This document shows, piece by piece, positions 1 through 35,152 of a stretch of 35,746 bases of DNA. Under the pieces are notes generated by a model, which worked only from the letters and a program-made list of their open reading frames with translations, made no database searches and was not told the DNA's origin. Source of the DNA: a virus (taxonomy: Duplodnaviria; Heunggongvirae; Uroviricota; Caudoviricetes); the IMG/VR virus record IMGVR_UViG_2563366879_000004, positions 1-35,746 of that record; one strand, written 5' to 3'. Made by a program: the position numbers and the translations under genes. The number at the start of each line of letters is the position of its first letter. Positions within the stretch are counted from its first letter, which is position 1.

Positions 1-1362
1 ATGTTTAAACCGGAACTCCTTTCCCCGGCGGGAACGCTGAAAAATATGCGTTACGCTTTCGCTTATGGCGCAGATGCTGTTTATGCGGGCCAGCCGCGTT
101 ACTCCCTGCGTGTACGCAACAACGAATTCAACCACGAAAATCTTCAGCTCGGCATCAATGAAGCCCACGCGCTGGGGAAAAAGTTTTATGTCGTGGTCAA
201 CATTGCACCGCACAACGCCAAGCTGAAAACCTTTATCCGTGACCTGAAACCGGTGGTGGAAATGGGGCCGGATGCGCTGATTATGTCCGATCCAGGGCTG
301 ATTATGCTGGTGCGTGAGCACTTCCCGGAAATGCCAATCCACCTCTCGGTACAGGCTAACGCCGTAAACTGGGCGACGGTGAAATTCTGGCAGCAAATGG
401 GGCTGACCCGCGTGATCCTCTCTCGCGAACTGTCACTGGAAGAGATTGAAGAGATCCGCAATCAGGTGCCGGATATGGAGATCGAAATCTTCGTTCACGG
501 CGCGCTGTGCATGGCCTACTCCGGTCGCTGCCTGCTCTCTGGCTATATCAACAAGCGCGACCCGAACCAGGGTACCTGCACCAACGCCTGCCGCTGGGAG
601 TACAACGTCCAGGAAGGGAAAGAAGATGACGTCGGCAACATCGTACACAAGTACGAGCCGATTCCGGTGCAAAATGTTGAGCCGACGCTGGGTATCGGCG
701 CGCCAACCGACAAAGTGTTTATGATCGAAGAAGCCCAGCGTCCGGGCGAGTATATGACCGCGTTTGAAGATGAGCACGGCACTTACATCATGAACTCGAA
801 AGATCTGCGCGCCATCGCCCATGTTGAACGCCTGACCAAAATGGGCGTGCATTCGCTGAAAATCGAAGGCCGTACCAAATCTTTCTACTATTGCGCACGC
901 ACCGCGCAGGTTTACCGTAAAGCTATCGATGACGCCGCTGCGGGCAAACCGTTCGATACCAGCCTGCTGGAAACTCTGGAAGGTCTGGCGCATCGTGGCT
1001 ATACCGAAGGTTTCCTGCGTCGTCATACCCACGACGATTATCAGAACTACGAATACGGTTATTCGGTTTCTGACCGTCAGCAGTTTGTTGGTGAGTTTAC
1101 CGGTGAGCGCAAGGGGGAGCTCGCGGCGGTAGCGGTGAAAAATAAATTCTCCGTTGGCGACAGCCTTGAGCTGATGACGCCGCAAGGCAACATTAACTTT
1201 ACCCTTGAGCATATGGAAAACGCCAAAGGTGAAGCTATGCCGGTCGCACCAGGCGATGGTTATACTGTGTGGCTCCCGGTGCCGCAGGATCTTGAGCTAA
1301 ATTACGCGCTGCTGATGCGTAATTTCTCCGGGGAAACCACGCGTAACCCCCACGGTAAGTGA
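1..1362 (+). CDS. yegQ: Peptidase U32-family protein YegQ/TrhP (tRNA hydroxylation); host gene on the left flank
   Basis: 453-aa ORF from window base 1; translation recognised as E. coli YegQ (U32 peptidase family, Cys-rich CxxxC region); sits directly upstream of cyaR as in E. coli. Confidence 0.88.
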   Translation: MFKPELLSPAGTLKNMRYAFAYGADAVYAGQPRYSLRVRNNEFNHENLQLGINEAHALGKKFYVVVNIAPHNAKLKTFIRDLKPVVEMGPDALIMSDPGLIMLVREHFPEMPIHLSVQANAVNWATVKFWQQMGLTRVILSRELSLEEIEEIRNQVPDMEIEIFVHGALCMAYSGRCLLSGYINKRDPNQGTCTNACRWEYNVQEGKEDDVGNIVHKYEPIPVQNVEPTLGIGAPTDKVFMIEEAQRPGEYMTAFEDEHGTYIMNSKDLRAIAHVERLTKMGVHSLKIEGRTKSFYYCARTAQVYRKAIDDAAAGKPFDTSLLETLEGLAHRGYTEGFLRRHTHDDYQNYEYGYSVSDRQQFVGEFTGERKGELAAVAVKNKFSVGDSLELMTPQGNINFTLEHMENAKGEAMPVAPGDGYTVWLPVPQDLELNYALLMRNFSGETTRNPHGK

Positions 1363-1446
1363 TTAATTTCGATTATTTTTCCCGGATGGAAAATTCTTAG
1401 AAACCGATCACATACAGCTGCATTTATTAAGGTTATCATCCGTTTC

Positions 1447-1533
1447 GCTGAAAAACATAACCCATAAAATGCTAGCTGTACCAGGAACCACCTCCTTAGC
1501 CTGTGTAATCTCCCTTACACGGGCTTATTTTTT
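1447..1533 (+). ncRNA. cyaR: CyaR (RyeE) Hfq-dependent sRNA; its 3' terminator hairpin contains the prophage att core
   Basis: Sequence gctgaaaaacataacccataaaatgctagctgtaccaggaaccacctccttagcctgtgtaatctcccttacacgggcttatttttt matches the recalled CyaR sequence; 10-bp stem (gcctgtgtaa / ttacacgggc with one G-U) plus U-run at the 3' end; located between yegQ and ogr as in E. coli. Confidence 0.8.
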
Positions 1534-1934: not shown

Positions 1935-3098
1935 TCACTCATCATCTTCTGTTTCGTACTCCACATCAGAAAGCCTGACCTCAAGCTCCAAGGACGTCGT
2001 GAAGCCGCTATTATTCAGAAAATGTGTCACCTTAGTGATTGTCCAGTCCTGCTCGTCTATGACGCGCTTAAAGCCTGACACTCTGACCGGTGTTTCCGTG
2101 TAAATATCTGCACGACCGGTAGCCAGGATGATGGAGAACTCCGCTACACCCCGTTGCAGCTTATCCCACTTCGCCTGAGCGGCACGCATGGCCTGTGCTT
2201 TCGTGGCATATACCGTGGTCAGGGCAAAAACATTGTCAGCCTCACCAGCCATGTATTCACCTTCGCGCGCTTCCGGTACTTTTGGCGCTTTCTTCTGCGT
2301 GACTGGTTTCGCTTTCGGGTGCTCCAGTGCGCGCAGGTGTTTCTCTTTCTTTTTGCGTTTCAGTTTTACCTTCTGCTTTTGCGGTTTCGGGTCTTTGGTG
2401 TGTAACCACTTTGCCGTTACGCCTGTATAGGCTCCGCGGTCAGCAATCGCAAAATGATGACGGTCGCCGTCGCTGCGGGTGATGGTAATCTGCGGGATTT
2501 TTTTACCGCTGGCCGTCACCCCCTGCCCCGCTTTGAGAAACAGCAGTTTTCCCATTTTTACCGACACCTCACCGCCGTTGCGTTCAGCAAGACGGGTCAG
2601 GAATTTCGCATCAGACTCCTGCGACTGGTCGATGTGCGGGATTTTAATTCCTGCCAGTGACGGCGCGACACTGGCTTCCAGCCTGTTACGGGAGGCTATC
2701 GCCTCAACAATCGCACCGAGCGTGGTGTCATGCCAGGAGCCTTCACGGCGGGAATTGAGCGTCCCGCGAAAATCTGCACTCCGGGCGCGGATGGTGACCA
2801 CATCCGGCGCGCCCCGGTGTTCAACCTCATCAACGGTAAATTTCCCTTTGCATACCAGGGCAAAACCTTTCCAGCCGATATACACCGTCAGGACAGCGCC
2901 ACGAACCGGCAGCCCGACCTGCCCGTCGGCATCGTTCAGTTCAATATCAAGCTGGTCAGCCTCAAAGCCCCGGTTATCCGTCAGGGTCATGCTCATCAGA
3001 CGGTCGCTGATATTGCCGGTAATATCCCTGCTGTCGAGCATCAGCATGTAATCCGGCGTCAGCGTACTGCCTGCATCAAATGTCAGCGCGTCCAGCAT
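1935..3098 (-). CDS. D: Tail protein gpD
   Basis: 387-aa ORF, same length and position as P2 gpD; start overlaps the U stop. Confidence 0.88.
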   Translation of the reverse strand: MLDALTFDAGSTLTPDYMLMLDSRDITGNISDRLMSMTLTDNRGFEADQLDIELNDADGQVGLPVRGAVLTVYIGWKGFALVCKGKFTVDEVEHRGAPDVVTIRARSADFRGTLNSRREGSWHDTTLGAIVEAIASRNRLEASVAPSLAGIKIPHIDQSQESDAKFLTRLAERNGGEVSVKMGKLLFLKAGQGVTASGKKIPQITITRSDGDRHHFAIADRGAYTGVTAKWLHTKDPKPQKQKVKLKRKKKEKHLRALEHPKAKPVTQKKAPKVPEAREGEYMAGEADNVFALTTVYATKAQAMRAAQAKWDKLQRGVAEFSIILATGRADIYTETPVRVSGFKRVIDEQDWTITKVTHFLNNSGFTTSLELEVRLSDVEYETEDDE

Positions 3099-3577
3099 TA
3101 TCCCGCCCCCGTCATACCTGTGAATCTGGTCGCCATACTGCCAGCCTTACCAATAAGCGACTCCGCCTGTTTACCGATATCGCCATAAAGCGCGGCCAGT
3201 GATTCATCAACGCGGGTGAGTGACAGCGTAAAATCAATTTTCCGGGGTGTGCCGTCTGCAAAGAAAATACTCCCTGTTTCACTCACCCTGCTGATGACAT
3301 ACATGCCATAAATCATGCCAGTGCCATCCAGCAACGGCCACGCCCGGCCTTCCTCTGCCATCAGCCTGAGCGTGGTCATCGTCAGCTTGCCGCCGGTCAG
3401 TTCGGGATAAAGCACGCCGGCAAGCGTAATGTTTTCCTCACCCACACCGAGAAACTGAAAGGCATCCCGTTTACCGATACGGGAATTTGACGGCCAGCGA
3501 TAATCTGATTCACGCTGCATGGTCTGGTGTGGCAGCGTCTGGCGCATAAAAACAAACATACCTAACGCGAGCATCAT
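3098..3577 (-). CDS. U: Tail protein gpU
   Basis: 159-aa ORF, P2 gpU length and synteny. Confidence 0.88.
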   Translation of the reverse strand: MMLALGMFVFMRQTLPHQTMQRESDYRWPSNSRIGKRDAFQFLGVGEENITLAGVLYPELTGGKLTMTTLRLMAEEGRAWPLLDGTGMIYGMYVISRVSETGSIFFADGTPRKIDFTLSLTRVDESLAALYGDIGKQAESLIGKAGSMATRFTGMTGAG

Positions 3578-3591
3578 TTTTCGTCACCTCC

Positions 3592-6039
3592 TTAACCGTC
3601 ATGCATCATGCTGGCACGGGCGCGCGCACGTTTATCCCGCTCGTATTTTTCGAGCGCATCCTGTAACTGGCGGTCAAGCTGTGTCCCCGGCGCAGTACCA
3701 CCCGTCAGGCTGATGTGATATTCGTTTTTACTCTGGTCCACATAAGAGCGGCCAGCCGGTGCCGTAACCGGATGATAAGCCTGATAACCTGCATAAGAGC
3801 TGGTCGCCGGAATATAACCACCGCTGTCATACGTGGCGGCTTGAGTTCTGGCGGCGGTCTGGTCAAGTGTGTCTGACTCTTTGTTGATAACACCGAGTTT
3901 TTCCAGTACCCAGTCAATTCCGCTGCGCAGTTTGTTGAACGCATTAAGCGGCAGCATCAGCGCGTCAGCCAGTGCCTGCCCGAACATGACGCCAGTATCA
4001 CGGCAACGGTTCAGGGTGTCCTGGGTGGCTTTGACCGGGGCAATCAGGTTTTTAAACCACTGCCACGCGGCCTGTAACTTTTCGCCCAGCCAGTCAAACA
4101 CCGGCTTAAGTGGCGTGAACAGTTCCCCCACCGGCGCAAATGCCGCTTTCAGCCCTTCCATCACACCGCCAAAGAATGCGCTGACAGGCTCCCAGTATTT
4201 ACGGATAAGCAACGCCCCGGCGACAATGGTGGCCACCACGGCCACAACCGGCCAGCTAATCGCCCCGATGGCGGTCATAACAGCACTGCCAACCGTCGTG
4301 AAGACTGCCCCCATTGCGCCTGCTGCCGCGATGATGGCATTGATGCCGGTGATAACCGGCCAGGCTACAAGACCAATTGCACCGATGATGCCAGTAAGCG
4401 CCAGTGCGCCACCGACAATGAGGCCGATGGTTGACGCCAGTGATTTGTTTTTCTGGATCCAGCCGTCGAGTTTTAACACATACTTTGTGGCCGTCTGAGT
4501 GAGCTTACGCAGCGCGCCTTCCTGCTGGTCAAACAGGTCAGTCCCCACCGCCTCATAAGCGGACTGAAACTCCTTAAAGTCACCGCCGAGGTTGTCCTGC
4601 ATGATATTTACCAGCTCGGCGGTCTTCCCGTCTGAGGCTTTAAACGCAGCGGTCAGTTTGTCCAGCTTTCCGGTTGAGGCGGCAGTCATCAGCACGGCGG
4701 CGGCTGAGCTGGCCTCCTCCCCGAAAATAGTTTTCATGTATTCAGCCTGCTGGGCAGTACCGAGCCGGTTTTTCTCAAAACTGGCCTGCATTTCTTTCAG
4801 AATGGTAAATACTGGTCGGGTGTTTCCCTTGCTGTCTGAGGTTTTCACTCCAAGCTCTTTGAGTGCATCCCATGCTTTTCCCGTCGGTGCCTGCAGGCGG
4901 CTTAACACGGCACGGCTTCCCGTCCCCGCCATTGAGCCTGTGATTTTTGCATCATGCAGCGCCCCGACCATTGCGGCGGTTTCTTCAATGCTGACACCGG
5001 CATTTTTTGCCACAGGTGCGGCATAGGTCAGCGCATCGCTCATGCCGTCAAAATCGGCGGCGGTTTTGTTCATCGTCATGGAGAGAACATCCCCGATATG
5101 AGCGACCTTATCGTTTGAAAGCTGAAAGGCGGATTTCATCCCCATCAACAGGGCGGCGTTTTCTTCCATCGTGCGACGGTTCGCCAGCGCCATATTCAGC
5201 GTGACCGGCGTTGCCGCCTGAATGGCATCAACATCCCCACCGGCTTTTGCAATGATAATCTGCGCACCGGCTGCATCATCCGCCGAGGCGGCGGTGTTGT
5301 CGCCGAGCTGGCGCGCCTGTTTGCGGAGCGCGGCCATTTCGGCGGAGTCTTTTACCACTCCGAGCACAGCCTGTAATTCTGAGTTTTTCTGCGCAAACTC
5401 ATAACCGGGCATCAGCAGCTTAACTCCGGCCATCGTTCCCGCCGCCGCAATCCCCACACCGGCAGCGCCCACTGAGGCCATATCTCCGGCCAGTTCCTTG
5501 CCGGCCTGATAACGCTGTTTGACTGCGTTAAGTTTTGCCTGTTGCGCACTGACACGCGCCAGTGCGTCACGCTGCCGGTTAAGCTGGGCAGTGGTTTCAC
5601 TGATACGGTTTTTCAGTCCCTGCTCATCATGTGCAAGATTGCGGGTATTAATTCCCACAGCGGCCAGTTCCCGCTGCTGGCGTTTAACGGAATCCGTCAG
5701 GCGGTTATATTTCGCCTGTAGGTCCTCCGCCGCTCGCTTTGCTGATTCCAGCACTTTCGCCTGAGCACGGGTCGGACGTTCGGTGTTTTTAAACTGTGTG
5801 GCAAGGGCTTCGGCTTCCTGCCGTGCCTTTTCAAGTGCATGACCAGTCACGGCAAGCTGTGCACTGGTCTTGCGGAATCCCTCAATACGGGATGCGTGAC
5901 CGTTCAGCTCGCGCAGTGATTTTTGTGTTTCCCGGATATCCCCCGACAGCGACTTACTCGCTGTGCGGATGGATTTAAACGGGCGGGATGCCTGGTCAAC
6001 AGCCCTGAGCAATACCTGTAATTTTACATTGTTACTCAT
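3592..6039 (-). CDS. T: Tail tape-measure protein gpT
   Basis: 815-aa ORF; Ala/Gly-rich coiled-coil and hydrophobic segments typical of tape-measure proteins; P2 gpT length and position. Confidence 0.9.
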   Translation of the reverse strand: MSNNVKLQVLLRAVDQASRPFKSIRTASKSLSGDIRETQKSLRELNGHASRIEGFRKTSAQLAVTGHALEKARQEAEALATQFKNTERPTRAQAKVLESAKRAAEDLQAKYNRLTDSVKRQQRELAAVGINTRNLAHDEQGLKNRISETTAQLNRQRDALARVSAQQAKLNAVKQRYQAGKELAGDMASVGAAGVGIAAAGTMAGVKLLMPGYEFAQKNSELQAVLGVVKDSAEMAALRKQARQLGDNTAASADDAAGAQIIIAKAGGDVDAIQAATPVTLNMALANRRTMEENAALLMGMKSAFQLSNDKVAHIGDVLSMTMNKTAADFDGMSDALTYAAPVAKNAGVSIEETAAMVGALHDAKITGSMAGTGSRAVLSRLQAPTGKAWDALKELGVKTSDSKGNTRPVFTILKEMQASFEKNRLGTAQQAEYMKTIFGEEASSAAAVLMTAASTGKLDKLTAAFKASDGKTAELVNIMQDNLGGDFKEFQSAYEAVGTDLFDQQEGALRKLTQTATKYVLKLDGWIQKNKSLASTIGLIVGGALALTGIIGAIGLVAWPVITGINAIIAAAGAMGAVFTTVGSAVMTAIGAISWPVVAVVATIVAGALLIRKYWEPVSAFFGGVMEGLKAAFAPVGELFTPLKPVFDWLGEKLQAAWQWFKNLIAPVKATQDTLNRCRDTGVMFGQALADALMLPLNAFNKLRSGIDWVLEKLGVINKESDTLDQTAARTQAATYDSGGYIPATSSYAGYQAYHPVTAPAGRSYVDQSKNEYHISLTGGTAPGTQLDRQLQDALEKYERDKRARARASMMHDG

Positions 6040-8923: not shown

Positions 8924-9625
8924 ATGGATAATTTGGAAGAAAAGCTTTCTGCGAAGAAAGCTTTGTTTATTTCATCTGTAAGAAAATTTCTCTCGTCTAA
9001 AAACAGAGATAATTTCATAGATTGCATGATCAATGGTACCGCCTATTTCAATGAGGCAGAAAAAATGGTGGGTAATAGTAAGCTACAAGGTAAGCACAAC
9101 GATGGTTTATGGGTAACTGACTTAGCCGAGTCTTGTGAGGCAATACTTGAGTCTTATCTTCTGCATATTGAATTTATCAAGTCACACCATGAAGACATGA
9201 TGGGTGAAAGTTATAAGAAACCAAACCTGCATGCCCTTTCCAGTATGCAAAGAATGGTGAAGATGTATTGTCAGAAAGAATCATCCAGTCACCTGAGAGA
9301 AAGATTCTTAAAAGCTAACTTACCAACAAAGGGTTTTGACGTGGCTCACAGAGACGATATTGATACTGCAAATAAATATATAACATTAGGTATTGGGTCA
9401 GTATTAGTTATAATGTCATTTGCTTTTGCAATGTTCATGGATAATCCTTCGTATTTTAAAATCTTTATAATAAGATCAACTTTTGCTGTTGGCTGTGCAG
9501 CCTTGGCCTCATTTGTTCCTGGATGGATAAACGTTAACGTAAAAGGGTATGTAAAAGCAGGAGGAGCCATTGCCATTATTTTAATATTTTATTTCTTTAA
9601 CCCCCCTGCAATGCTGATTGGCTAA
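8924..9625 (+). CDS. Hypothetical 233-aa membrane protein (soluble N-terminal region of about 150 aa plus about three C-terminal transmembrane helices)
   Basis: ORF starts 4 nt after the upstream gene; C-terminal hydrophobic stretches (ITLGIGSVLVIMSFAFAMF, FAVGCAALASFVPGWI, GGAIAIILIFYFF); AT-rich. Confidence 0.6.
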   Translation: MDNLEEKLSAKKALFISSVRKFLSSKNRDNFIDCMINGTAYFNEAEKMVGNSKLQGKHNDGLWVTDLAESCEAILESYLLHIEFIKSHHEDMMGESYKKPNLHALSSMQRMVKMYCQKESSSHLRERFLKANLPTKGFDVAHRDDIDTANKYITLGIGSVLVIMSFAFAMFMDNPSYFKIFIIRSTFAVGCAALASFVPGWINVNVKGYVKAGGAIAIILIFYFFNPPAMLIG

Positions 9626-25434: not shown

Positions 25435-26235
25435 CTATTTCATCAGTCCTATAAAAGCTGCTGTCATGCTACCCAATGCACCAATAGCAGCAAATAACGT
25501 TGCCCAAAACATGCTTTTTTGGCTACGAATATTCTCATTATATCGTTGTTTTTCATTATTGAAGTGATTTAACGTATTAATTGCTTTTCCGGTGGGCTTA
25601 TAACCATCTCGAGTCTTTGAAATGTCCCCACTCTCTACAAGGGAATCCAGACATAAGCGAAGTTCTTTTATGAGTCGAGAATAATCATCATGGTAGATCC
25701 ATAAACGTCCTGCCACATCATTCATAATTAGAGTCTCACTGAATGGTTTTTCCCCTTGTTGCTCTCGATAAATTCTGACAATTGCAGCCAATACCGTCAT
25801 TACATCAGTTATCTCCTGCTTGCGTTGTCGATACAAATACTTCTCACGACTTAGCTTTTTATTTTGACGATCCGCTATTCTTCTAAATCTAAGTACATTA
25901 AAATAAGATAAATCATCCAATGAGTCAAACTTCAATTCATGCGCATGATAATAATAAATTCCAGAAAAGGAATTTGATGTAAGTCGTTCTGGTTTAAGAA
26001 TTGTATCAATATTGAAAGTTTTATTCTGATGATTCCACTTCTTAACCTTTATAATTCCGTTTGAATAACTATCAAAAAGATAGTCATTACCCTCGTCATC
26101 CTTAATGTAAACGGAATACATATCGTAATGAATGGCACTCTCATACATTAAACTAATTTTGCCATTTTCAGGGATCTTCTTTGACTCAAAAACTTTCAGA
26201 AACTTTACAACATCAACTTTATTTTTATGCCTCAT
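25435..26235 (-). CDS. Hypothetical 266-aa protein with a single C-terminal transmembrane anchor; candidate effector of the adjacent RT system
   Basis: AT-rich ORF 165 nt downstream of the RT gene on the same strand; C-terminus MFWATLFAAIGALGSMTAAFIGLMK is strongly hydrophobic; no recognised catalytic motif. Confidence 0.6.
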   Translation of the reverse strand: MRHKNKVDVVKFLKVFESKKIPENGKISLMYESAIHYDMYSVYIKDDEGNDYLFDSYSNGIIKVKKWNHQNKTFNIDTILKPERLTSNSFSGIYYYHAHELKFDSLDDLSYFNVLRFRRIADRQNKKLSREKYLYRQRKQEITDVMTVLAAIVRIYREQQGEKPFSETLIMNDVAGRLWIYHDDYSRLIKELRLCLDSLVESGDISKTRDGYKPTGKAINTLNHFNNEKQRYNENIRSQKSMFWATLFAAIGALGSMTAAFIGLMK

Positions 26236-26400: not shown

Positions 26401-27351
26401 TTAAACCGATGTATTTGCTTTCAACGTCAATACCTTCGATCTATAACGTTTTTCAATAACCCCCATTGAATATAAACGACCAAATAATTTCTTTGCTGTT
26501 CTTGTATCTTTAGCTTGTTCTACATCTTTTATTATTTTCCAAAGCTCTATTTCTCTAGCCATAAGATAATGCTGTTCGTTCCTAACCTTTAAGCTATCCC
26601 CAAATACTATCACTCCTGTCACTAGTTTAGGCTTATCCCCAGCATATAATTTCGTTTTAGTTGGATGCATAACGTGTCCATGCTTATTAATAATCTTACG
26701 AATCACGCTGCAAAACAATCGATTTACATTATCTCCAGAAAAAGTAAGATCATCGACATAAACTGTCATTTTCACACGAAACTTCTCACAAAGTTGATTC
26801 ATTTCATCAAACATTCTGGAATTTGCAAAATATGCTAATGGCATACTAATCCGACTACCCGTTGGCAATCGTTCATGACAGGTACATATATGAGATAAAA
26901 TATCAGCCACATCTGGCGACATTTTCATTATTGAGAAAAAGAAAGAAAATATCATTTCTCTTGTTGTTGACGGAAAAAAAGATCTAATATCTGTAGTCAT
27001 CAACTTCTGATGATTGAGATGTGCTTTAGCATTTGTTATGTTAGAGCAACTTTTTTTACCAGAGTGTAAATATTCGGGCATAGCTATACGCAATAATAGA
27101 CTCGCAATACGTGTATGCACTACATCTAATTTTTCTAAAGGCTTTTGTATTTTCCGTATTTTATTTTTTTTAGAAAGCTGTTCAAAAATAGAGTAATTAC
27201 CCTCATCCCTTTTCAAAACTGATAGGTCATTGATACTAACGCAGAGCAAGCTAGCCAACTTTTTTTTACTTTTAAGTTTATAAAGTGGCGAATCCGTAAT
27301 AGGATAAGATTTATTTTTAGTTGAAACCTTCAGCTTAATCCTTTTTTTCAT
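26401..27351 (-). CDS. Retron-type reverse transcriptase (316 aa)
   Basis: RT motifs in order: NAKAH (retron NAxxH), DIRSFFPS, LPTGSRISMPLAYF (LPxG...SxP), YVDD catalytic box (VYVDDLTFS), and KLVTGVIV (retron VTG motif); size typical of retron RTs; very AT-rich. Confidence 0.8.
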   Translation of the reverse strand: MKKRIKLKVSTKNKSYPITDSPLYKLKSKKKLASLLCVSINDLSVLKRDEGNYSIFEQLSKKNKIRKIQKPLEKLDVVHTRIASLLLRIAMPEYLHSGKKSCSNITNAKAHLNHQKLMTTDIRSFFPSTTREMIFSFFFSIMKMSPDVADILSHICTCHERLPTGSRISMPLAYFANSRMFDEMNQLCEKFRVKMTVYVDDLTFSGDNVNRLFCSVIRKIINKHGHVMHPTKTKLYAGDKPKLVTGVIVFGDSLKVRNEQHYLMAREIELWKIIKDVEQAKDTRTAKKLFGRLYSMGVIEKRYRSKVLTLKANTSV

Positions 27352-27637
27352 TTCTTTTACTTACCCACTCTAGTATATCCAGAACTTTCCCTGCCAGTTT
27401 TAAACGTAAACTTTTGGATAATCGTCCTTGTGTCCCTAATGATTCTGAAAAAAAGACCAAAGAGGATACTGGCATGTCGAAATGGGAAGCATAACGCTGC
27501 AAAATATCAATCGACGGCACCCATAGTCCGCTTTCAATCTCTACTATTCTGCTTTTTGGAATACCTAAAGATGATGATAAGTCAACTATTGATTCTTTAT
27601 GGTATTGCCTTATTAAACGAAGGGCTTTATGCAACAT
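27335..27637 (-). CDS. XRE-family helix-turn-helix protein (about 100 aa) overlapping the RT start
   Basis: HTH-like segment IVDLSSSLGIPKSRIVEIESG; preferred ATG at 27637 has GGAG 6 nt upstream (the supplied ORF starts at 27649); 3' end overlaps the RT start by 17 nt, suggesting translational coupling. Confidence 0.65.
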   Translation of the reverse strand: MLHKALRLIRQYHKESIVDLSSSLGIPKSRIVEIESGLWVPSIDILQRYASHFDMPVSSLVFFSESLGTQGRLSKSLRLKLAGKVLDILEWVSKRNEKKD

Positions 27638-27673
27638 AGGCAACTCCATCTTGTTGAAACTAGGGAGGACGCA

Positions 27674-27829
27674 TTACTCATCTCCCCCTTCAAAGAAGTC
27701 AACTGCGCGAGTGATCCAATAAAGTAGTCTAATAAGCCACTTAATTACACCCCAAGCGTTAGGAGTCTTCTTTTTCCGGTTTAACTTGTTTTGCGCCTGC
27801 TGTTCGTTGGTTACTTTATCATTTTTCAT
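27674..27829 (-). CDS. Possible 51-aa peptide with basic N-terminus and one hydrophobic helix (MKNDKV...WGVIKWLIRLLYWITRAV...)
   Basis: ATG at 27829 preceded by AAGGAG at 6-nt spacing; lies within the supplied 97-aa ORF 27674..27967; could instead be non-coding leader or ncRNA sequence. Confidence 0.35.
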   Translation of the reverse strand: MKNDKVTNEQQAQNKLNRKKKTPNAWGVIKWLIRLLYWITRAVDFFEGGDE

Positions 27830-28100
27830 GATCTGCTCCTTATGTCCACGGTGTGCAAACGATATGTCTGCTCCAGCACCATGGCTCGCCCTCATAAGGA
27901 TGAGATTGAACAGCACCAGCTCCCTGCTCCACGAACCCTTTGTCGCCCAAAGGGTTCGAATACCCATACGCTATGCCGCGTGAATCAGAGACTCCTGTCG
28001 CTGACAGAGGCGTTGCGCGGGGTAAATGTTAGAAAGCATTAGCTTTCCACGGGCAATAAATACCCAATTGATGGCGATTTATCTCACTAACTAACCAATG
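27830..28100 (-). ncRNA. Candidate structured leader or retron msr/msd-like ncRNA upstream of the RT operon (boundaries uncertain)
   Basis: Perfect 11-bp stem cgaaccctttg/caaagggttcg (27932-27958), 8-bp stem 28030-28049, imperfect stem 27992-28010, direct repeats of cgtgga; retron ncRNAs are normally encoded just upstream of the RT operon. The a1/a2 repeats could not be confirmed by eye. Confidence 0.3.
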
Positions 28101-28271: not shown

Positions 28272-30566
28272 TTAAAATAAAAACAATGCTTCATCTTCAA
28301 TTCCCGGCCAAACATCAGCAACCGGATACGTGAATTTTTTCCCGTCATAATTTACAGTTGCTCCACGCGCCAGCGCCTCAAGTTCCCATCGCTGCGGCCT
28401 GATACCGTTCTGAGCAAGGTCAACGCGGATACGGGTAATTTGCATTCGTTCTGACCGGGTCAGTCTGGCCGATGGCGCTATTTCATGTGGTTTTAACGGT
28501 TTTCCGTTTCTTTGCTGGCGGTTTGGTCTTCTCAGTCCGTGTTTTAATGCCCCCCTGAGCGCCCTCACGACCTCCGGGTCACTCCATTCGATGACACCGT
28601 CATCAACCAGATTAAGCACTGCTGCGGCGTTCTCAGTAGGTGTGGGAGCCGGTAACGAAGTATCACCACCGGTGAGCTTTCCACAGTTATTGACAGGACT
28701 CCGAGGCGCGGCGATGCCGCTTTTTAAAGTCAAAGGCTCAACGACCGGAACTTTCGGAACAATGCGCCAGTCCGTCGTTCTGGTGATATGAATATGACGC
28801 GCGCCGAGATGCGGTGCGTAAATGCCGACCACTCTCTCGACCTCTTCCTCGTACTCGTTAACGTCATCCGACGGGCTACGGGCGACTCTGACAGTCTGAC
28901 AATCGCGCGGAACATTTGCCCCACCCTGCGCGCTGATATACAACGCAAAATCACCTCTGTCTGCGGCGGCGCGTGCAGCCTCGACGCGCTCGTCAAACTC
29001 ATCAGCAATGCTGACGCCGCGAGGCAATTTGCGTAGTTCACGGTAAGCCCCCATTGTCGGCAGACCAACCGTTTTAAATTGCGGAATGCGCCACGTTGAC
29101 GCCCATGCGGTAACAGCCGCAGCAGTATCTTTCAGCGGCCTGCCGGTATCGTTATCGAGCTGACCATCCAGTGCATAGCCATCGATGTTTTTTGAGATGT
29201 ATTTCGCGATATATCCCGCAGCACCGCCCCGGTTAAGGTGTTTTGCCTGAAAACGGTTTCGCGCGGCTCCTCTTTCGTCGCCATCCTCTTTGAGCGCATA
29301 GCGACGCATGATTTCGATAATCTGGTTACGCTGGCGTGGATTACAAAAAAGCATCATATGCCAGTGCGGCGTTCCGTCGTGGTGTGGCTCGACGACACGC
29401 AAACCGTAGACCTGTAAATCATTATCCTTGAATGCCGTGCGCATCAGGCTCCAGATGCGGCAGAGATAACGCTGCGCATCCTTTGGATTAAATGCCTCAT
29501 CGTTCCAGCCGTGATTAAGCTGAACGGTTTTACTTTCGCCTTTTCTGACCTGACGAGTCGGGTGATACTTTGACGGCGCGGTCAGCGTGATAAACATCCC
29601 CACATCACCCTCTGCGGCGGCGTAACGCTCAATACCGGCAATGGTGTTCATCAGCTCCATCCGGCGAATTTCAGGATTAGAAATACTGCCCATCACCTTA
29701 CTGATAAGGTCGATGCGCTCGCCGGTTTCCCTGTTTTCAAGGTCACACGATTTAAGAAATTCCAGATTTGCCTGGCGGCGCGCACGCACATCACGAATGG
29801 CGTGTTTACTGGCATAAGGAGAACGGTCTTTATTGACCTCCCCGACAGCTATCAGTAACGCTTCATGCCAGCGCATACGCTGGCCTTTAAGCTGATGAGT
29901 CCACCACTCATCGTTAAACAGACGGGCAATGGCAGAATATGCCTGCCTCGTGGTTATCTGTCCTTTACGGTATTTTTTCCAGTAGAGCGGGGAAATATTG
30001 AAAGCACGTGCAGCGCCAGCAACATGACCATACAGGTGAGCCTGCGCCTCATCCGTAAACAGTGATTCTTTTTCGCCATGCGCATCCACCCAGGCATCGC
30101 TGAGTTCCTCATACATCATGAAAAGCTGCGATGAGATACGGGCAGCAAACTTTTTCAGCTCCTTGTCATTCATTCCAGGCAGGCGCGCATAGTGGTCACG
30201 CTCTGCCAGAAACAGCAACGACGCGTCGGTGTTCATTTCATTGCGCTGATTAACGCGCTCAATGCGCGGCCATAAACGACGCTGAAAAGTGGATGTGAGG
30301 AAATAAAACCCGTGCAACGGGCTTTTATTGCGCCGGATGTAGTCATAGCGTGAAGTAAACAGCGAGCGCAAAAAGTAAGGCAGGCGGTTAATCGTGGATA
30401 AAACACCTTGCACCTGACGCATCTCGTCACGTGTAAGGGGTCTTTCGCGCCCGACAGCCTCGCGTGGCGCATTCCATGCATAAGCACCGGTAAACGCCTT
30501 ACCGGTGCCTGCGGCAAACGCAGACGGAGGTACGCAGGTGTATTGCTCCTGGAAAGAATGACTCAT
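28272..30566 (-). CDS. A: Replication initiation protein gpA (rolling-circle nickase)
   Basis: 764-aa ORF (recalled P2 gpA about 761 aa); N-terminal region resembles the recalled gpA sequence; position between orf83-side genes and the cos-proximal hotspot. Confidence 0.88.
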   Translation of the reverse strand: MSHSFQEQYTCVPPSAFAAGTGKAFTGAYAWNAPREAVGRERPLTRDEMRQVQGVLSTINRLPYFLRSLFTSRYDYIRRNKSPLHGFYFLTSTFQRRLWPRIERVNQRNEMNTDASLLFLAERDHYARLPGMNDKELKKFAARISSQLFMMYEELSDAWVDAHGEKESLFTDEAQAHLYGHVAGAARAFNISPLYWKKYRKGQITTRQAYSAIARLFNDEWWTHQLKGQRMRWHEALLIAVGEVNKDRSPYASKHAIRDVRARRQANLEFLKSCDLENRETGERIDLISKVMGSISNPEIRRMELMNTIAGIERYAAAEGDVGMFITLTAPSKYHPTRQVRKGESKTVQLNHGWNDEAFNPKDAQRYLCRIWSLMRTAFKDNDLQVYGLRVVEPHHDGTPHWHMMLFCNPRQRNQIIEIMRRYALKEDGDERGAARNRFQAKHLNRGGAAGYIAKYISKNIDGYALDGQLDNDTGRPLKDTAAAVTAWASTWRIPQFKTVGLPTMGAYRELRKLPRGVSIADEFDERVEAARAAADRGDFALYISAQGGANVPRDCQTVRVARSPSDDVNEYEEEVERVVGIYAPHLGARHIHITRTTDWRIVPKVPVVEPLTLKSGIAAPRSPVNNCGKLTGGDTSLPAPTPTENAAAVLNLVDDGVIEWSDPEVVRALRGALKHGLRRPNRQQRNGKPLKPHEIAPSARLTRSERMQITRIRVDLAQNGIRPQRWELEALARGATVNYDGKKFTYPVADVWPGIEDEALFLF

Positions 30567-31570
30567 TCACATACACCGGCATAGACACTACTGCAAACGG
30601 CTTTATCATTCGCCGAAGCCAGTAAATCAAACTGAGTACCCCCACGCGTTGTCATTGTCCAGTCATGGTAGGTTTCTATTCCGTATGCCTCGACTGTTAC
30701 AATCTCAATACGACGTTCTGCGCGTAACGGATCATGTGTGGATGGGAAAAAAGTGGAATTTCCCCGACGGGAGCACGACGCAACCAGTCGTTCCCATTCA
30801 GCAACCCGCTTTATTTCCTCCGGCCACCGGCGAAAAATTTCTGCCAGTTCAGATTTACGGACATGAATACATGGCATACAACCAACACGGCCACACCCCT
30901 GCTGATATAACGGATTTGGCTTAATGTCATGTCTTCTGGCTATTGCAAATACATCTTCATGCTTCCAGTGCAAAATCGGGCGATATACATGCAATCCGGG
31001 GGTGTTGTCTGCATCCTCTTCCCAGACAGGTAAAGCTGCGCGTGATGGCGATTCCTGAGCACGCACTCCCTGCCAGCTAATCACTTCCTCAAATTCATTG
31101 AGTAAAGGCAGGATTACCTGAGAACGCACGGGTTCATGTTTCAGTTCAAATGTGCAAAATCTGGCTTTGGTTGATGGGAAACGCCCCTTCCACAGACACA
31201 AATCAAGAAACGGGATACCCGTTGGTTTGAGAATTTCCAGCGCACAACTGATGCGCTGGTGCGCTTCTTCTTCCGACATTCCACAATCGTTAACCAACAA
31301 ATCAGGCCATTTGGTCTGGATAAACTTGCGCTTTGATTCAATCCGGCAGGAAAAATCAGCCCTGACCCTTTGAATTGGGCCAAGCCGTTTTTCCAGATAA
31401 TCCAGATATTTCATTGTCTGTGGATGTTCATGTCCCGTATCAGCAAAAACCGGCAATATGGGTACATTTTCTTCAATAGCGACAAGCCACTGAGCAAGGC
31501 TGTCCTTTCCACCTGAAACAAAAATAACATTGATGGTATTTTCAGTATGGCAACGAGCATCAGTAATCAT
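30563..31570 (-). CDS. PAPS-reductase-family PP-loop protein (335 aa), accessory gene between orf83 and A
   Basis: N-terminal SGGKDS PP-loop motif; C-terminal cysteine cluster CGRVGCMPC; ATGA-type overlaps with both neighbours; absent from the recalled P2 map. Confidence 0.65.
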   Translation of the reverse strand: MITDARCHTENTINVIFVSGGKDSLAQWLVAIEENVPILPVFADTGHEHPQTMKYLDYLEKRLGPIQRVRADFSCRIESKRKFIQTKWPDLLVNDCGMSEEEAHQRISCALEILKPTGIPFLDLCLWKGRFPSTKARFCTFELKHEPVRSQVILPLLNEFEEVISWQGVRAQESPSRAALPVWEEDADNTPGLHVYRPILHWKHEDVFAIARRHDIKPNPLYQQGCGRVGCMPCIHVRKSELAEIFRRWPEEIKRVAEWERLVASCSRRGNSTFFPSTHDPLRAERRIEIVTVEAYGIETYHDWTMTTRGGTQFDLLASANDKAVCSSVYAGVCE

Positions 31571-31845
31571 TCAGACGCTCCTCTGGAGAACGCCTCTGAA
31601 CAACGCTTGCTGAGCTGCTCAACCTGCGTGTTTAAATCGGCAAAAGATTTTGCGCTTCCGGTCAGAATATCGTGATGCATCAGGCCGGAAACGAGCTGGC
31701 TTAATTTCGGATAATAACCAACCACCGCCAGCCATTCCTGACCGGCGTTTTTACCGCTTTCCGCTCTCTTTTTCTCGTGGAGAATAAACTGAAAGCTGTC
31801 ACTGGTAACGACATAACGTTCGCCAATTTCAATACGAATACTCAT
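31567..31845 (-). CDS. Hypothetical early protein (P2 orf83 position)
   Basis: 92-aa ORF in the early operon, synteny with P2 orf83. Confidence 0.6.
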   Translation of the reverse strand: MSIRIEIGERYVVTSDSFQFILHEKKRAESGKNAGQEWLAVVGYYPKLSQLVSGLMHHDILTGSAKSFADLNTQVEQLSKRCSEAFSRGASE

Positions 31846-33333: not shown

Positions 33334-33609
33334 TTAACGTGGTTCACCGAGACCTAACCACATCAACCAGCCGTCACGAATCTCTTTAGGGCGGCTTTCA
33401 TAAGCCAGTTTTAGTCCGTTATTCCATGCCGGAAGGTATACCCAATATTCACCTGCACGACCTGAAGCTGATTGTGGATCGGTCATATCAATTACAGGCA
33501 GCTTTCCTTTATCGATCATCCGACGAACCGCTCCTGTCGATTTTCCTATTAGTTTTGCGAACTCCTGATAAGGAATCGCATCAGTCATGAGTGTTACTTG
33601 CTTGCTCAT
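33334..33609 (-). CDS. cox: Cox, excisionase and repressor of Pc
   Basis: 91-aa ORF, first gene of the early operon facing C; P2 Cox length. Confidence 0.85.
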   Translation of the reverse strand: MSKQVTLMTDAIPYQEFAKLIGKSTGAVRRMIDKGKLPVIDMTDPQSASGRAGEYWVYLPAWNNGLKLAYESRPKEIRDGWLMWLGLGEPR

Positions 33610-33690: not shown

Positions 33691-33730
33691 ATCTAAACTA
33701 AATACTATTGAGATCTAAACACTATGTCAA
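33691..33730 (-). promoter_or_regulatory. Early promoter Pe (-35 TTGACA, 17-bp spacer, -10 TAGTAT on minus strand) flanked by two 8-bp direct-repeat operator half-sites (atctaaac)
   Basis: rc of 33725-33730 is TTGACA; rc of 33702-33707 is TAGTAT; exact 17-bp spacer; atctaaac at 33691-33698 and 33713-33720 (22 bp apart) flank the -10, the arrangement known for the P2 C operator. Confidence 0.6.
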
Positions 33731-34023
33731 ACACGATAAGCGAGAAGATAGTCTTAATGCGAAAATCAGAGTATTTGAGCAGACAACAACTTGCTGATTT
33801 AACAGGGGTTCCGTATGGCACGCTGAGTTACTATGAAAGTGGTCGTTCAACACCTCCAACAGATGTCATGATGAACATCCTGCAGACCCCACAATTCACC
33901 AAATACACTTTATGGTTCATGACCAATCAGGTCGCTCCTGAGTCCGGGCAAATTGCGCCCGCTCTCGCACACTTTGGGCAAAACGAAACAACGTCGCCCC
34001 ACTCCGGTCAAAAGACTGGTTAA
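33724..34023 (+). CDS. C: Immunity repressor C
   Basis: 99-aa ORF with HTH segment SRQQLADLTGVPYGTLSYYESG; P2 C length; divergent from cox. Confidence 0.88.
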   Translation: MSNTISEKIVLMRKSEYLSRQQLADLTGVPYGTLSYYESGRSTPPTDVMMNILQTPQFTKYTLWFMTNQVAPESGQIAPALAHFGQNETTSPHSGQKTG

Positions 34024-34138: not shown

Positions 34139-35152
34139 ATGGCAATCAAAAAACTCGATGATGGTCGATATGAAGTGGACATCCGCCCTACTGGACGTAA
34201 TGGAAAACGCATCCGTAGGAAGTTTGATAAGAAAAGCGAAGCTGTCGCTTTCGAGAAATACACGTTGTACAACCACCACAATAAAGAATGGCTATCAAAA
34301 CCAACAGACAAGCGACGTCTGTCGGAGCTGACACAGATCTGGTGGGATTTAAAGGGTAAACACGAAGAGCATGGGAAATCTAATCTTGGAAAAATTGAAA
34401 TCTTCACAAAAATAACGAATGACCCATGCGCATTTCAAATTACGAAATCGCTTATCAGCCAGTACTGCGCCACCCGAAGAAGTCAGGGTATTAAACCTTC
34501 GAGTATCAATCGTGATTTAACATGTATTAGCGGCATGTTTACAGCCCTGATTGAAGCGGAGTTATTCTTTGGTGAGCACCCTATCAGAGGGACAAAAAGG
34601 CTTAAGGAGGAAAAACCAGACACAGGCTATCTCACGCAGGAAGAAATTGCCTTACTGCTTGCTGCTCTTGACGGCGACAACAAAAAGATTGCGATTCTTT
34701 GCCTGAGCACTGGAGCACGTTGGGGAGAAGCAGCTCGTTTGAAAGCAGAAAATATCATCCATAACCGCGTCACGTTTGTTAAAACGAAAACAAACAAACC
34801 ACGCACCGTCCCGATCTCAGAGGCTGTTGCCAAAATGATCGCGGATAACAAACGAGGTTTTTTATTCCCTGATGCTGATTACCCTCGCTTCAGACGAACA
34901 ATGAAAGCAATAAAACCGGATTTGCCAATGGGGCAAGCCACACATGCACTAAGGCACAGCTTTGCCACTCATTTCATGATTAATGGAGGAAGTATTATCA
35001 CGCTACAACGGATACTAGGTCACACGCGGATTGAGCAAACTATGGTTTACGCTCATTTTGCGCCAGAGTACCTTCAGGACGCCATTTCTCTTAATCCGCT
35101 AAGAGGTGGTACTGAGGCCGAGAGTGTCCACACAGTGTCCACAGTAGAGTAA
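34139..35152 (+). CDS. int: Tyrosine integrase
   Basis: 337-aa ORF with C-terminal catalytic signature (HALRHSFATH... and Y in MVYAHFAPEY); ends 80 nt from the attR core. Confidence 0.9.
   Translation: MAIKKLDDGRYEVDIRPTGRNGKRIRRKFDKKSEAVAFEKYTLYNHHNKEWLSKPTDKRRLSELTQIWWDLKGKHEEHGKSNLGKIEIFTKITNDPCAFQITKSLISQYCATRRSQGIKPSSINRDLTCISGMFTALIEAELFFGEHPIRGTKRLKEEKPDTGYLTQEEIALLLAALDGDNKKIAILCLSTGARWGEAARLKAENIIHNRVTFVKTKTNKPRTVPISEAVAKMIADNKRGFLFPDADYPRFRRTMKAIKPDLPMGQATHALRHSFATHFMINGGSIITLQRILGHTRIEQTMVYAHFAPEYLQDAISLNPLRGGTEAESVHTVSTVE

Follow-up and report, generated by a model that had tools for sequence, protein, structure and literature searches.

A coliphage 186 orf84-type PAPS-reductase-like gene carried as a cassette in the early operon of a P2-type prophage

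We analyzed a 35,746-nucleotide stretch of viral DNA (hereafter, the window) and found that its P2-type prophage carries, as a cassette, a gene of the PAPS-reductase family placed just before the replication gene A (Table 1). By sequence and position, this gene is the orthologue of orf84 of coliphage 186. Knowledge of the gene goes back to the sequencing of phage 186, it is a routine annotation of genome pipelines, and its presence here is ordinary. Its product may be an enzyme that modifies nucleic acid.

An orf84-type gene carried as a cassette

The initial annotation described a 335-aa open reading frame in which a PP-loop (SGGKDS) is followed by the cysteine motif CGRVGCMPC, and which overlaps both of its neighbors by 4 nt. 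All of this was confirmed: the motifs are residues 19-24 and 226-234 of the protein, the gene is on the minus strand, and each overlap reads ATGA. This is a real, intact gene, far beyond a chance ORF, because it has Pfam and PHROG matches, 5828 homologues (E<1e-5), and a low dN/dS. The latter is 0.07-0.085 in comparisons with the orthologues of phages 186 and P37, a sign of strong purifying selection on the gene. In E. coli, 30 complete genomes have an annotated, near-identical copy, and genomes of this species list A as "replication endonuclease".

Table 1. Features of the window in and around the orf84-type gene.
Feature	Position	Strand	Basis
1055-bp cassette relative to the P2/Wphi backbone	30534..31588	-	blastn against Wphi
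orf84-type PAPS-reductase-like gene	30563..31570	-	ATG start, 335-aa product
orf83-like gene (DUF5405), upstream neighbor	31567..31845	-	Pfam PF17399, E 4e-14; 97% DNA identity to Wphi orf83 region
Gene A, rolling-circle replication endonuclease, downstream neighbor	28272..30566	-	tblastn, 96-98% identity to P2-type A proteins
ATGA overlap, orf83 stop / orf84-type start	31567..31570	-	direct sequence reading
ATGA overlap, orf84-type stop / A start	30563..30566	-	junction sequences
Pe-like early promoter TTGACA-17-TAGTAT, upstream of cox	33702..33730	-	consensus scan only
C	33724-34023	+	
cox	33334-33609	-	

When the window was compared with Wphi by blastn, the 96-97% identity ended at position 31589 and restarted at 30533, and the cassette in between stands in place of 35 bp of Wphi. 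It takes in the complete orf84-type gene together with ~22 nt from the end of orf83 and the 11 codons with which A begins. The A protein of the window aligns with canonical P2-type A proteins only from residue 12. The gene had been described as inserted into the operon. This is correct relative to P2 and Wphi, where it replaces the 35 bp, but the same gene is resident in the same slot of phage 186.

The early lytic (Pe) operon of P2-type phages is repressed in the lysogen. A consensus scan of the minus strand identified a single good promoter-like site upstream of the operon, a Pe-like site between C and cox, in the position of Pe in P2, and none directly before the orf84-type gene. By these signals, the gene appears to be translated from the early lytic (Pe-like) transcript. 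The junction with orf83 has a Shine-Dalgarno-like sequence (GAGGAG) 7 nt upstream. The 21-nt junction with A, TATGCCGGTGTATGTGAATGA, has the same letters in phage 186, and we saw in it no good Shine-Dalgarno sequence before A. As the stop codon of the orf84-type gene overlaps the start of A, ribosomes ending the former would feed translation of the latter, which reads as translational coupling. For comparison, the record of phage 186 (U32222 / NC_001317) notes that A apparently cannot be translated unless translation reaches the end of orf84, and it describes a terminator early in A that is active when A is untranslated. The lack of a promoter-like site of its own, the two ATGA junctions, and the coupling into A recorded in 186 thus support the proposed co-expression with replication genes. 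The suggestion that the gene could provide defence is unlikely, given its place in an early lytic operon behind a Pe-like promoter, and we rejected a lysogen-expressed defence role on this operon position.

Family assignment and comparison with known enzymes

The assignment to the PAPS-reductase family of PP-loop proteins holds. The protein matches Pfam PF01507 over residues 15-236 with 121.5 bits for a cut-off of 22.5 (E 5e-35), has the fold that defines the PAPS_reduct branch of PP-loop ATP pyrophosphatases, and matches PHROG 424 (E 8.5e-86), which is filed under "moron, auxiliary metabolic gene". It is a single domain of 335 aa. Pfam scans of 18 longer homologues revealed no fused domain except in one family member, which is joined to a VRR-NUC nuclease.

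The conserved features are the PP-loop (S19-S24), DTGxE (44-48), C139, K144, a loop with R170/E173/S174/R177, RVGC231xPC234, and C326...C334-E335. Among 120 representatives, C139, C231, C234, and C334 are 98-100% conserved. Within the PP-loop, G21, D23, and S24 are invariant, and S19, G20, and K22 are found in 87-92% or more. In representatives with as little as 39% identity, the PP-loop, DTGxE, K144, the loop with R170/E173/S174/R177, and the four cysteines remain invariant. This refines the cysteine cluster of the initial annotation: family-wide conservation is limited to C231 and C234 of its three cysteines, as C226 is kept in 7% of the representatives, and the equally invariant C139 and C334 had gone unmentioned. 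The family has a C-terminal tail of the form ...CSSxYxGxCE. In alignments, RVGCxPC falls on the CxxC that binds the cluster in the APS reductases of M. tuberculosis and P. aeruginosa, a position occupied by SVGD in the cluster-free CysH of E. coli. In the HMMER alignment, the CC pair of APS reductases is replaced by the single C139, about 8 residues upstream. Model confidence is low for the C-terminal 60 residues and the cysteine loops.

On profile scores and gene content, the protein is not CysH, DndC, or BrxP and probably not SspD, since every curated cut-off was missed and the partner genes are absent. Its scores against CysH and APS/PAPS reductase models were 67.3 vs 154 bits (NF002537), 46.5 vs 165 (TIGR00434), 53 vs 235 (TIGR02055), and 40 vs 254 (TIGR02057), with alignments limited to the C-terminal half. 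CysH and the assimilatory APS/PAPS reductases are defined by a C-terminal catalytic ECGLH motif. This motif is absent from the window protein, which ends in ...CSSVYAGVCE, and at the aligned PP-loop position SGGKDS stands against SSSFG in CysH. Neither CysH nor the APS reductases (P. aeruginosa 2goy, M. tuberculosis 7lhr) have its ~50-aa helical insert and ~60 extra C-terminal residues.

The score against DndC (TIGR03183) was 21.3 vs 290.4 bits, over residues 132-209 only. In PADLOC, which has no curated cut-off, residues 127-282 matched positions 73-216 of the 277 of the SspD model (E 2.5e-21). Partial matches to BrxP (E 8.6e-13, model positions 212-336 of 779) and DndC (E 1e-7) also fell within residues ~127-282. 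The BrxP of BREX type 4 is a PAPS domain fused to DUF4007, with brxC, pglZ, and brxL as neighbors (PMC12914056); the window protein has no DUF4007, and there are no brx genes near its gene. Nor is there a dnd operon, as the neighbors are orf80-83 and A and the operon has no ABC/SMC-type ATPase. We found no sspA, sspB, or sspC among the window ORFs examined, and no DndD/SspC/BrxC-type NTPase, DndE, SspB, nickase, or desulfurase gene beside the orf84-type gene. The protein shares with DndC, SspD, and BrxP the Pfam domain and the PP-loop, and an Fe-S/cysteine-based sulfur chemistry is plausible for it, but the invariant C-terminal tail is a feature of its own family. Hence, the kinship initially suggested with the DndC/SspD and BREX types does not amount to orthology in the HMM sub-family check. 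Other leads were discarded: IbrA/IbrB and "PptA", the latter raised by a weak PDB match, led nowhere, and the known anti-Dnd protein JSS1_004 is a kinase unrelated to the window protein.

Relatives and methyltransferase neighborhood

Orf84 of phage 186 (NP_052288; U32222 / NC_001317 25743-26747) has 334 aa and is 76.3% identical to the window protein over residues 2-335 of the latter. Its gene likewise follows the orf83/DUF5405 gene and precedes A, with the same ATGA overlaps, and is recorded as "unknown function; not essential". The initial annotation read the family correctly without recognizing this identity. The backbones differ: that of the window is P2-type (Peduovirus), with an A protein 96-98% identical to P2-type A, whereas 186 is an Eganvirus whose A is 37% identical. 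The DNA identity between the two orf84-type genes is only 72.6%, which marks the exchange as old rather than recent. A PAPS-reductase-family gene with 81.5% aa and 78.5% nt identity is found in Yersinia phage P37 and in "Peduovirus P2" OU784746, which share the P2-type backbone and the slot with the window but have a different allele of the cassette. Downstream of A, P37 has a C5 methyltransferase, and the window prophage a type VI retron. Further away, gp57 of Burkholderia phage phiE125 and its relatives in PHROG 424 are 44% identical over the full length, including the C-terminal cysteine tail, and the phiE125 record itself notes the similarity to 186 Orf84. There, in a lambdoid-type siphovirus, the gene is flanked by the genes of a site-specific DNA methyltransferase (gp56) and a ParB-like protein (gp58) and not by A.

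Of 80 related loci, 63 have the orf84-type gene immediately 5' of A. Its protein remains 67-79% identical in prophages whose A proteins have only 30-40% identity, and copies in this range are also found in lambdoid-type prophages without A. The family is a widespread and strongly conserved PP-loop, predicted Fe-S enzyme. Its genes belong to the early operons of temperate phages infecting Enterobacterales, Burkholderia, Pseudomonas, Stenotrophomonas, Agrobacterium, and others, and mostly have DNA methyltransferase, ParB, or replication genes on either side.

To describe this neighborhood, we used Pfam scans of each neighboring ORF, as BLAST clustering was too insensitive, and profile-based scans for the viral contigs with distant members, in which single-protein scans gave few loci. 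A Dam-type gene was present within 2.5 kb in 37 of 63 Peduoviridae loci with an orf84-type gene, and directly adjacent upstream on the same strand in 27 of them; Dam-orf84-A is the commonest arrangement beside a methyltransferase. Among loci with a 186-type A, Dam was upstream in 6/8 with the orf84-type gene vs 15/63 without it (p=0.007); these neighbor statistics treat loci as independent of phylogeny and have no formal background control. A Dam or Dcm gene occupies the position immediately 5' of A in SEN4, ST13-OXA48phi12.1, and a Klebsiella phage-plasmid. The gene order is MTase-PAPS-ParB in phiE125 and MTase-PAPS-MTase in Agrobacterium phage Rivra. In lambdoid-type contexts, the orf84-type gene adjoins ParB-like, Dam, N6/N4, C5, and MT-A70 genes, and the commonest annotated neighbors of distant members are C5 and N6/N4 methylases and Mom. 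These flanks in phages of Enterobacterales, Burkholderia, and Agrobacterium, and the Dam or Dcm genes in the same Peduoviridae slot, favor the proposed DNA modification for evasion, but there is no phage methyltransferase beside the gene in the present window.

Two vibriophage genes that were transferred together confer an anti-Dnd phenotype, one encoding a PAPS-domain/Dam fusion and the other a protein of unknown function (10.1101/2021.05.05.442762). The fusion, p0018 of phage P5a (Piel et al. 2022), resembles by description the Dam-orf84 gene pairs, although its short PAPS domain spans about aa 4-175 and is likely to come from a more distant subfamily, and the window protein has no Dam domain. 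PAPS reductases are also found in Aca-regulated anti-defence operons (PMC13551039).

Putative function and alternative explanations

The explanation that we favor, with slightly less than an even chance of being right (about 45%), is an ATP-dependent Fe-S enzyme of the sulfur-transfer type that modifies nucleic acid during lytic replication and serves as an anti-restriction accessory, its substrate being putative. The orf84-type protein would be an active enzyme of the PAPS-reductase branch, binding ATP at the invariant SGGKDS loop. A [4Fe-4S] cluster is predicted on C139, C231, and C234, which would leave one iron free. Such a three-cysteine cluster with a free iron is the arrangement of sulfur-inserting enzymes such as TtuA, and DndC has the same arrangement. 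At the flexible C-terminus, C334, with C326, could act as a sulfur carrier or nucleophile. The substrate is most probably nucleic acid, either phage DNA just after replication or one of its nucleotides, on which an oxygen would be adenylated and then replaced, most likely by sulfur. The enzyme would act alongside DNA methyltransferases as a non-essential accessory for anti-restriction or DNA marking in lytic growth. If it does modify DNA, this would be a new anti-restriction chemistry of phages and would explain the recurring "PAPS reductases" of their anti-defence regions. Two points speak against this reading. The known phosphorothioation systems all need a partner P-loop NTPase, DndD, SspC, or BrxC (PMC12914056), and none adjoins the window gene. 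Furthermore, to our knowledge, decades of restriction mapping have not led to a report of any unusual modification in the DNA of 186 or P2. We found in the full-text literature no biochemical or genetic study of the function of 186 orf84 or its family, for which phage 186 offers a ready genetic system.

A bolder form of this reading, which we consider improbable, is that the family is a self-contained, single-polypeptide DNA-modifying enzyme. With ATP, the three-cysteine [4Fe-4S] cluster, and a persulfide on the C-terminal cysteine, it would mark the replicating DNA of the phage with a sulfur-containing or other adenylation-dependent group, maybe at or next to the sites of the partner Dam-type enzymes. 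If true, this would be an undescribed pathway of phage DNA modification, independent of the DndD/SspC/BrxC-type ATPases that all known phosphorothioation systems require.

It is also unlikely that the protein is an anti-Dnd/Ssp factor acting by mimicry or hijack, i.e., that it enters or poisons the host DndCDE-FGH or SspBCD-E systems so that phage DNA is marked as self or spared. Its best matches in defence libraries are the partial ones to SspD, BrxP, and DndC given above, and the link of a phage PAPS-domain protein to escape from Dnd (10.1101/2021.05.05.442762) also speaks for it. The lack of an NTPase, nickase, and desulfurase of its own would fit a reliance on host components. Yet a pure decoy would have no use for the invariant PP-loop, the Fe-S cysteines, and the terminal cysteine, which are kept across 39-100% identity with a dN/dS of 0.07, and the similarity to DndC and SspD is weak, partial, and far under curated cut-offs. 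Furthermore, most E. coli hosts lack Dnd and Ssp as far as we know.

Two further alternatives move the activity away from DNA. One, which we regard as very unlikely, is an RNA-directed enzyme, either a tRNA/RNA thiolase or another PP-loop RNA modifier (TtuA/TtcA/TilS-like), by which the phage would tune host translation in lytic growth. Here, the matches are weaker than those to the PAPS-reductase branch, the protein has no RNA-binding domain (THUMP, PUA, or the zinc fingers of TtuA), and the gene context is DNA-centered. The other is an auxiliary metabolic gene, a true APS/PAPS reductase that raises the supply of sulfite and cysteine in infection, as its database name "cysH" and the category of PHROG 424 would have it. 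The nearest solved structures and sequences are indeed APS/PAPS reductases, and the window protein resembles APS reductases in its Fe-S-type CxxC and in having a cysteine in the C-terminal tail. We nevertheless rejected CysH-type metabolism, whose probability is slight, on the scores far under the cut-offs, the absence of ECGLH and of a CysH counterpart to the helical insert, the ATP-type PP-loop, and conserved neighbors that are DNA methyltransferases, ParB, and replication genes and never sulfur-assimilation genes.

Finally, there is little chance that the gene is mainly a cis-acting expression device, in which translation of the ORF brings ribosomes to the A start and averts premature termination while the protein is dispensable: the 186 record, the conserved overlaps and 21-nt junction, and the missing Shine-Dalgarno sequence before A would fit, but P2 and Wphi reach the same coupling with orf83 alone. 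The purifying selection and the copies in prophages without A show that selection acts on the protein in its own right. The coupling to A is real, but it is a secondary role of the gene.

An orthologue of 186 orf84 in a P2-type prophage

The window carries a P2-type (Peduovirus) prophage with the gene order integrase, C, cox, B, orf80-83 and then A, the rolling-circle replication endonuclease gene, whose product shares 96-98% identity with P2-type A proteins. Host DNA borders it, and the U32 peptidase gene and CyaR sRNA at the left end place the prophage next to cyaR. Between orf83 and A lies the orthologue of orf84 of coliphage 186. The two proteins are 76% identical over their full length and occupy the identical slot, and the 21-nt junction from the orf84 stop to the A start (TATGCCGGTGTATGTGAATGA) is the same in both phages. 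The curated 186 record calls orf84 not essential and remarks that the A protein seems to be translated only if translation reaches the end of orf84. Yersinia phage P37 and a record labelled 'Peduovirus P2' (OU784746) have closer alleles (81.5% amino acid identity). Of 5426 complete E. coli genomes, 30 carry a copy with at least 99% identity and 14 others one at about 78%, all annotated as PAPS-reductase family or domain proteins. The gene is already known, which makes the present instance ordinary.

Positions of the features discussed in the text
Feature	Position	Strand	Remark
U32 peptidase gene	1-1362	+	host DNA, left end
CyaR/RyeE sRNA	1445-1530	+	host DNA, left end; 100.7 bits
ORF	8924-9625	+	no Pfam or PADLOC match
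ORF	25435-26235	-	no Pfam or PADLOC match
Type VI retron module	26401-27649	-	variable spot downstream of A
Retron reverse transcriptase	26401-27351	-	PADLOC RT_VI, E 1.8e-105
Retron HTH partner	27335-27649	-	HTH_VI, E 2.5e-31
ORF	27674-27967	-	no Pfam or PADLOC match
Gene A	28272-30566		764 aa; downstream neighbour of orf84-type gene
orf84-type gene	30563-31570	-	ATG start, 335 aa
Terminator-like hairpin	31209-31223	-	T-tail
Terminator-like hairpin	31361-31384	-	T-tail
DUF5405 gene (orf83-type)	31567-31845		Pfam match; upstream neighbour of orf84-type gene
C	33724-34023		prophage backbone
Integrase	34139-35152		prophage backbone

The ORF is a genuine gene, a chance origin being excluded by its profile matches (Pfam PF01507, E 5e-35; PHROG 424, E 8.5e-86), its 5828 database homologues and its dN/dS of 0.07-0.085 against the orthologues in 186 and P37. 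It is under strong purifying selection, and a purely cis-acting role for it is highly improbable. The initial annotation was right about the ORF itself, with SGGKDS at residues 19-24 and CGRVGCMPC at 226-234, and about its overlaps: ATGA is shared by the orf83-type stop and its start, and again by its stop and the ATG of A, as read from the sequence. Co-expression with the replication genes, also claimed there, is well founded, since a consensus scan of this strand gave a Pe-like TTGACA-17-TAGTAT before cox as the sole good promoter-like site upstream of the operon and none directly 5' of the orf84-type gene. Two terminator-like hairpins lie inside the orf84-type coding sequence. Over the whole operon region, 13 terminator-like matches were observed vs 4.2 expected from shuffles, and the annotation of 186 has several anti-terminated terminators in the corresponding operon.

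The slot upstream of A

The gene had been described as inserted in the operon, which is true relative to P2 and to Wphi, a P2-type phage without it; within the family, however, it is an old and known resident of the slot. DNA identity to Wphi (96-97%) breaks off at position 31589 and resumes at 30533, so that a 1055-bp cassette stands in place of 35 bp. Within it lie the end of orf83, the whole orf84-type gene and codons 1-11 of A (30534-30566), a start region common to the P37 and OU784746 alleles. The A protein starts with MSHSFQEQYTC..., and its match to canonical P2-type A does not begin before residue 12; this start region came with the cassette.

In 63 of 80 IMG/VR loci the next gene downstream of the orf84-type gene is an A-type replication gene, and there the orf84-type gene is much better conserved (67-79% identity) than its surroundings (down to 30-40% for A). 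Other loci include lambdoid-type prophages with equally similar copies and no A gene; in the 10 examined, the neighbours include ParB-like genes and Dam, N6/N4, C5 and MT-A70 methyltransferases. A Dam-type gene is present within 2.5 kb in 37 of the 63 Peduoviridae loci, and in 27 of them (among compared loci L005-L084) it is the immediate upstream neighbour, in the same orientation. This Dam-orf84-A order, seen again in loci L238, L240, L242, L245, L260 and L261, is the commonest arrangement of the orf84-type gene in Peduoviridae. In the window, no Dam partner stands beside the gene.

We also sorted 71 loci, sampled with a 186-type A protein, by the gene directly preceding A: a TraR-like zinc-finger gene (28), orf83 (11), Dam (11), an orf84-type gene (8), Dcm (2), a PsP3 gp35-like gene (2), and other or none (9). 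Dam was upstream in 6 of the 8 loci with an orf84-type gene vs 15 of the 63 without (Fisher p=0.007, ignoring relatedness). The slot is filled by Dam plus Dcm in SEN4 and by Dam in ST13-OXA48phi12.1; a Klebsiella phage-plasmid has Dam, two short ORFs and then Dcm directly upstream of A. Comparable orders are MTase gp56, PAPS gp57 ('similar to Phage 186 Orf84' in the record) and ParB-like gp58 in Burkholderia phiE125, and MTase-PAPS-MTase with 4-nt overlaps in Agrobacterium phage Rivra. When 150 ORFs neighbouring 54 non-redundant distant members were examined, the leading annotated functional class was C5 methylase (8), N6/N4 methylase (3) and Mom (1). One member (locus L101, 4659-6509) is a single 617-aa ORF in which the PAPS-reductase domain is fused to a VRR-NUC nuclease domain at the C-terminus. 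The family is repeatedly associated with DNA methyltransferase, ParB and replication genes, and the most useful leads are that Dam and orf84-type genes pair up and that the slot takes DNA-modification cargo.

Conserved motifs and proposed function

Two sets of sequences were aligned: 120 representatives from clustering at 50%, and 51 curated sequences with identities as low as 39%. A motif set is conserved across the orf84 family, its elements invariant or nearly so: the PP-loop S19-G-G-K-D-S24, D44-T-G-x-E48, D123, C139, K144, G168, R170, E173, S174, R177, N219-P-L-Y222, R228-V-G-C231-x-P-C234, K239, E260 and the extreme C-terminus C326-S-S-x-Y-x-G-x-C334-E335. Of the Cys cluster first noted, C231 and C234 belong to this set, and no more than 7% of representatives have its first cysteine, C226. 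In the APS reductases of M. tuberculosis and P. aeruginosa, the [4Fe-4S]-binding CxxC is what RVGCxPC aligns with; cluster-free CysH has SVGD at this position. In the AlphaFold2 model (mean pLDDT 75), confidence is good over about residues 1-270 and low at the Cys loops and in the final 60 residues, which fits a cofactor-dependent site and a mobile tail, respectively. The solved structures nearest to it are APS/PAPS reductases. The protein matches only positions 150-420 of the 460 columns of PHROG 424, hence part of that group carries an N-terminal extension of about 150 residues.

The assignment to PAPS-reductase-family PP-loop proteins is upheld at the superfamily level, but the suggested analogies to DndC, SspD and BrxP are not. 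The HMM sub-family check left the protein below every curated cut-off applied: 67 bits for CysH (NF002537, cut-off 154), 53 for APS reductase (TIGR02055, 235) and 21 for DndC (TIGR03183, 290). Defence-library models match only in part (SspD, E 2.5e-21 over residues 127-282; BrxP, 8.6e-13; DndC, 1e-7), and no DndD/SspC/BrxC-type NTPase, DndE, nickase or desulfurase gene adjoins it in the window. On these grounds we rejected all three identities. A recent survey found minimal gene sets mostly missing from PT-free isolates, and read this as fitting a need for both an NTPase and a PAPS-domain protein (PMC12914056).

What stands out is that a canonical ATP-type PP-loop occurs together with a putative three-Cys cluster site and a tail cysteine that is conserved. 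In the characterised relatives TtuA/NcsA and DndC, such a combination accompanies adenylation and then sulfur transfer. Our preferred reading, to which we give a probability of about 0.45, is that the protein is an ATP-dependent Fe-S enzyme that would perform a sulfur-transfer-type reaction on nucleic acid, with a dispensable anti-restriction or DNA-marking role during lytic replication. The ORF and A have a translationally coupled layout, and the ORF may additionally hand ribosomes on to A. A role in defending the lysogen is disfavoured by expression from the early lytic operon.

Our literature search brought up no study on what the orf84 family does; in one genome paper the non-essential status of the 186 gene is restated. 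In work by Piel et al., two vibriophage genes moved together, a PAPS-domain/Dam fusion and a function-unknown gene, allowed the recipient phage to escape a Dnd system (10.1101/2021.05.05.442762). PAPS reductases in Aca-regulated operons are among the candidate anti-defence genes listed by a 2026 survey (PMC13551039). That the protein hijacks or poisons host Dnd/Ssp machinery is an unlikely alternative, to be set beside that escape and the partial SspD and DndC matches. Modification of RNA is less probable again, in a family with so many DNA methyltransferase neighbours. A true sulfonucleotide reductase is marginally less probable still; in its favour stands the cluster motif shared with APS reductases, against it the lack of ECGLH, the catalytic tail of CysH, the C-terminus being ...CSSVYAGVCE. 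The remaining interest lies in the biochemistry of a widespread, methyltransferase-linked family.

Distant homologues and other elements

A distant homologue (locus L184; 371 aa) lies at 2590-3705 of IncC plasmid NZ_CP132611.1, with 26% identity over residues 132-328. This type is about 1.5 kb from repA and occurs on 1476 plasmids, 1116 of them conjugative (the one record examined being IncC); the plasmid leading-region anti-defence paper makes no mention of it. In the window, the msr/msd RNA of the retron was not located, with no Rfam match at the retron. The three ORFs lacking Pfam and PADLOC matches fall in function-unknown PHROGs 5814, 7611 and 5826, and the retron lies between two of them in the variable region.
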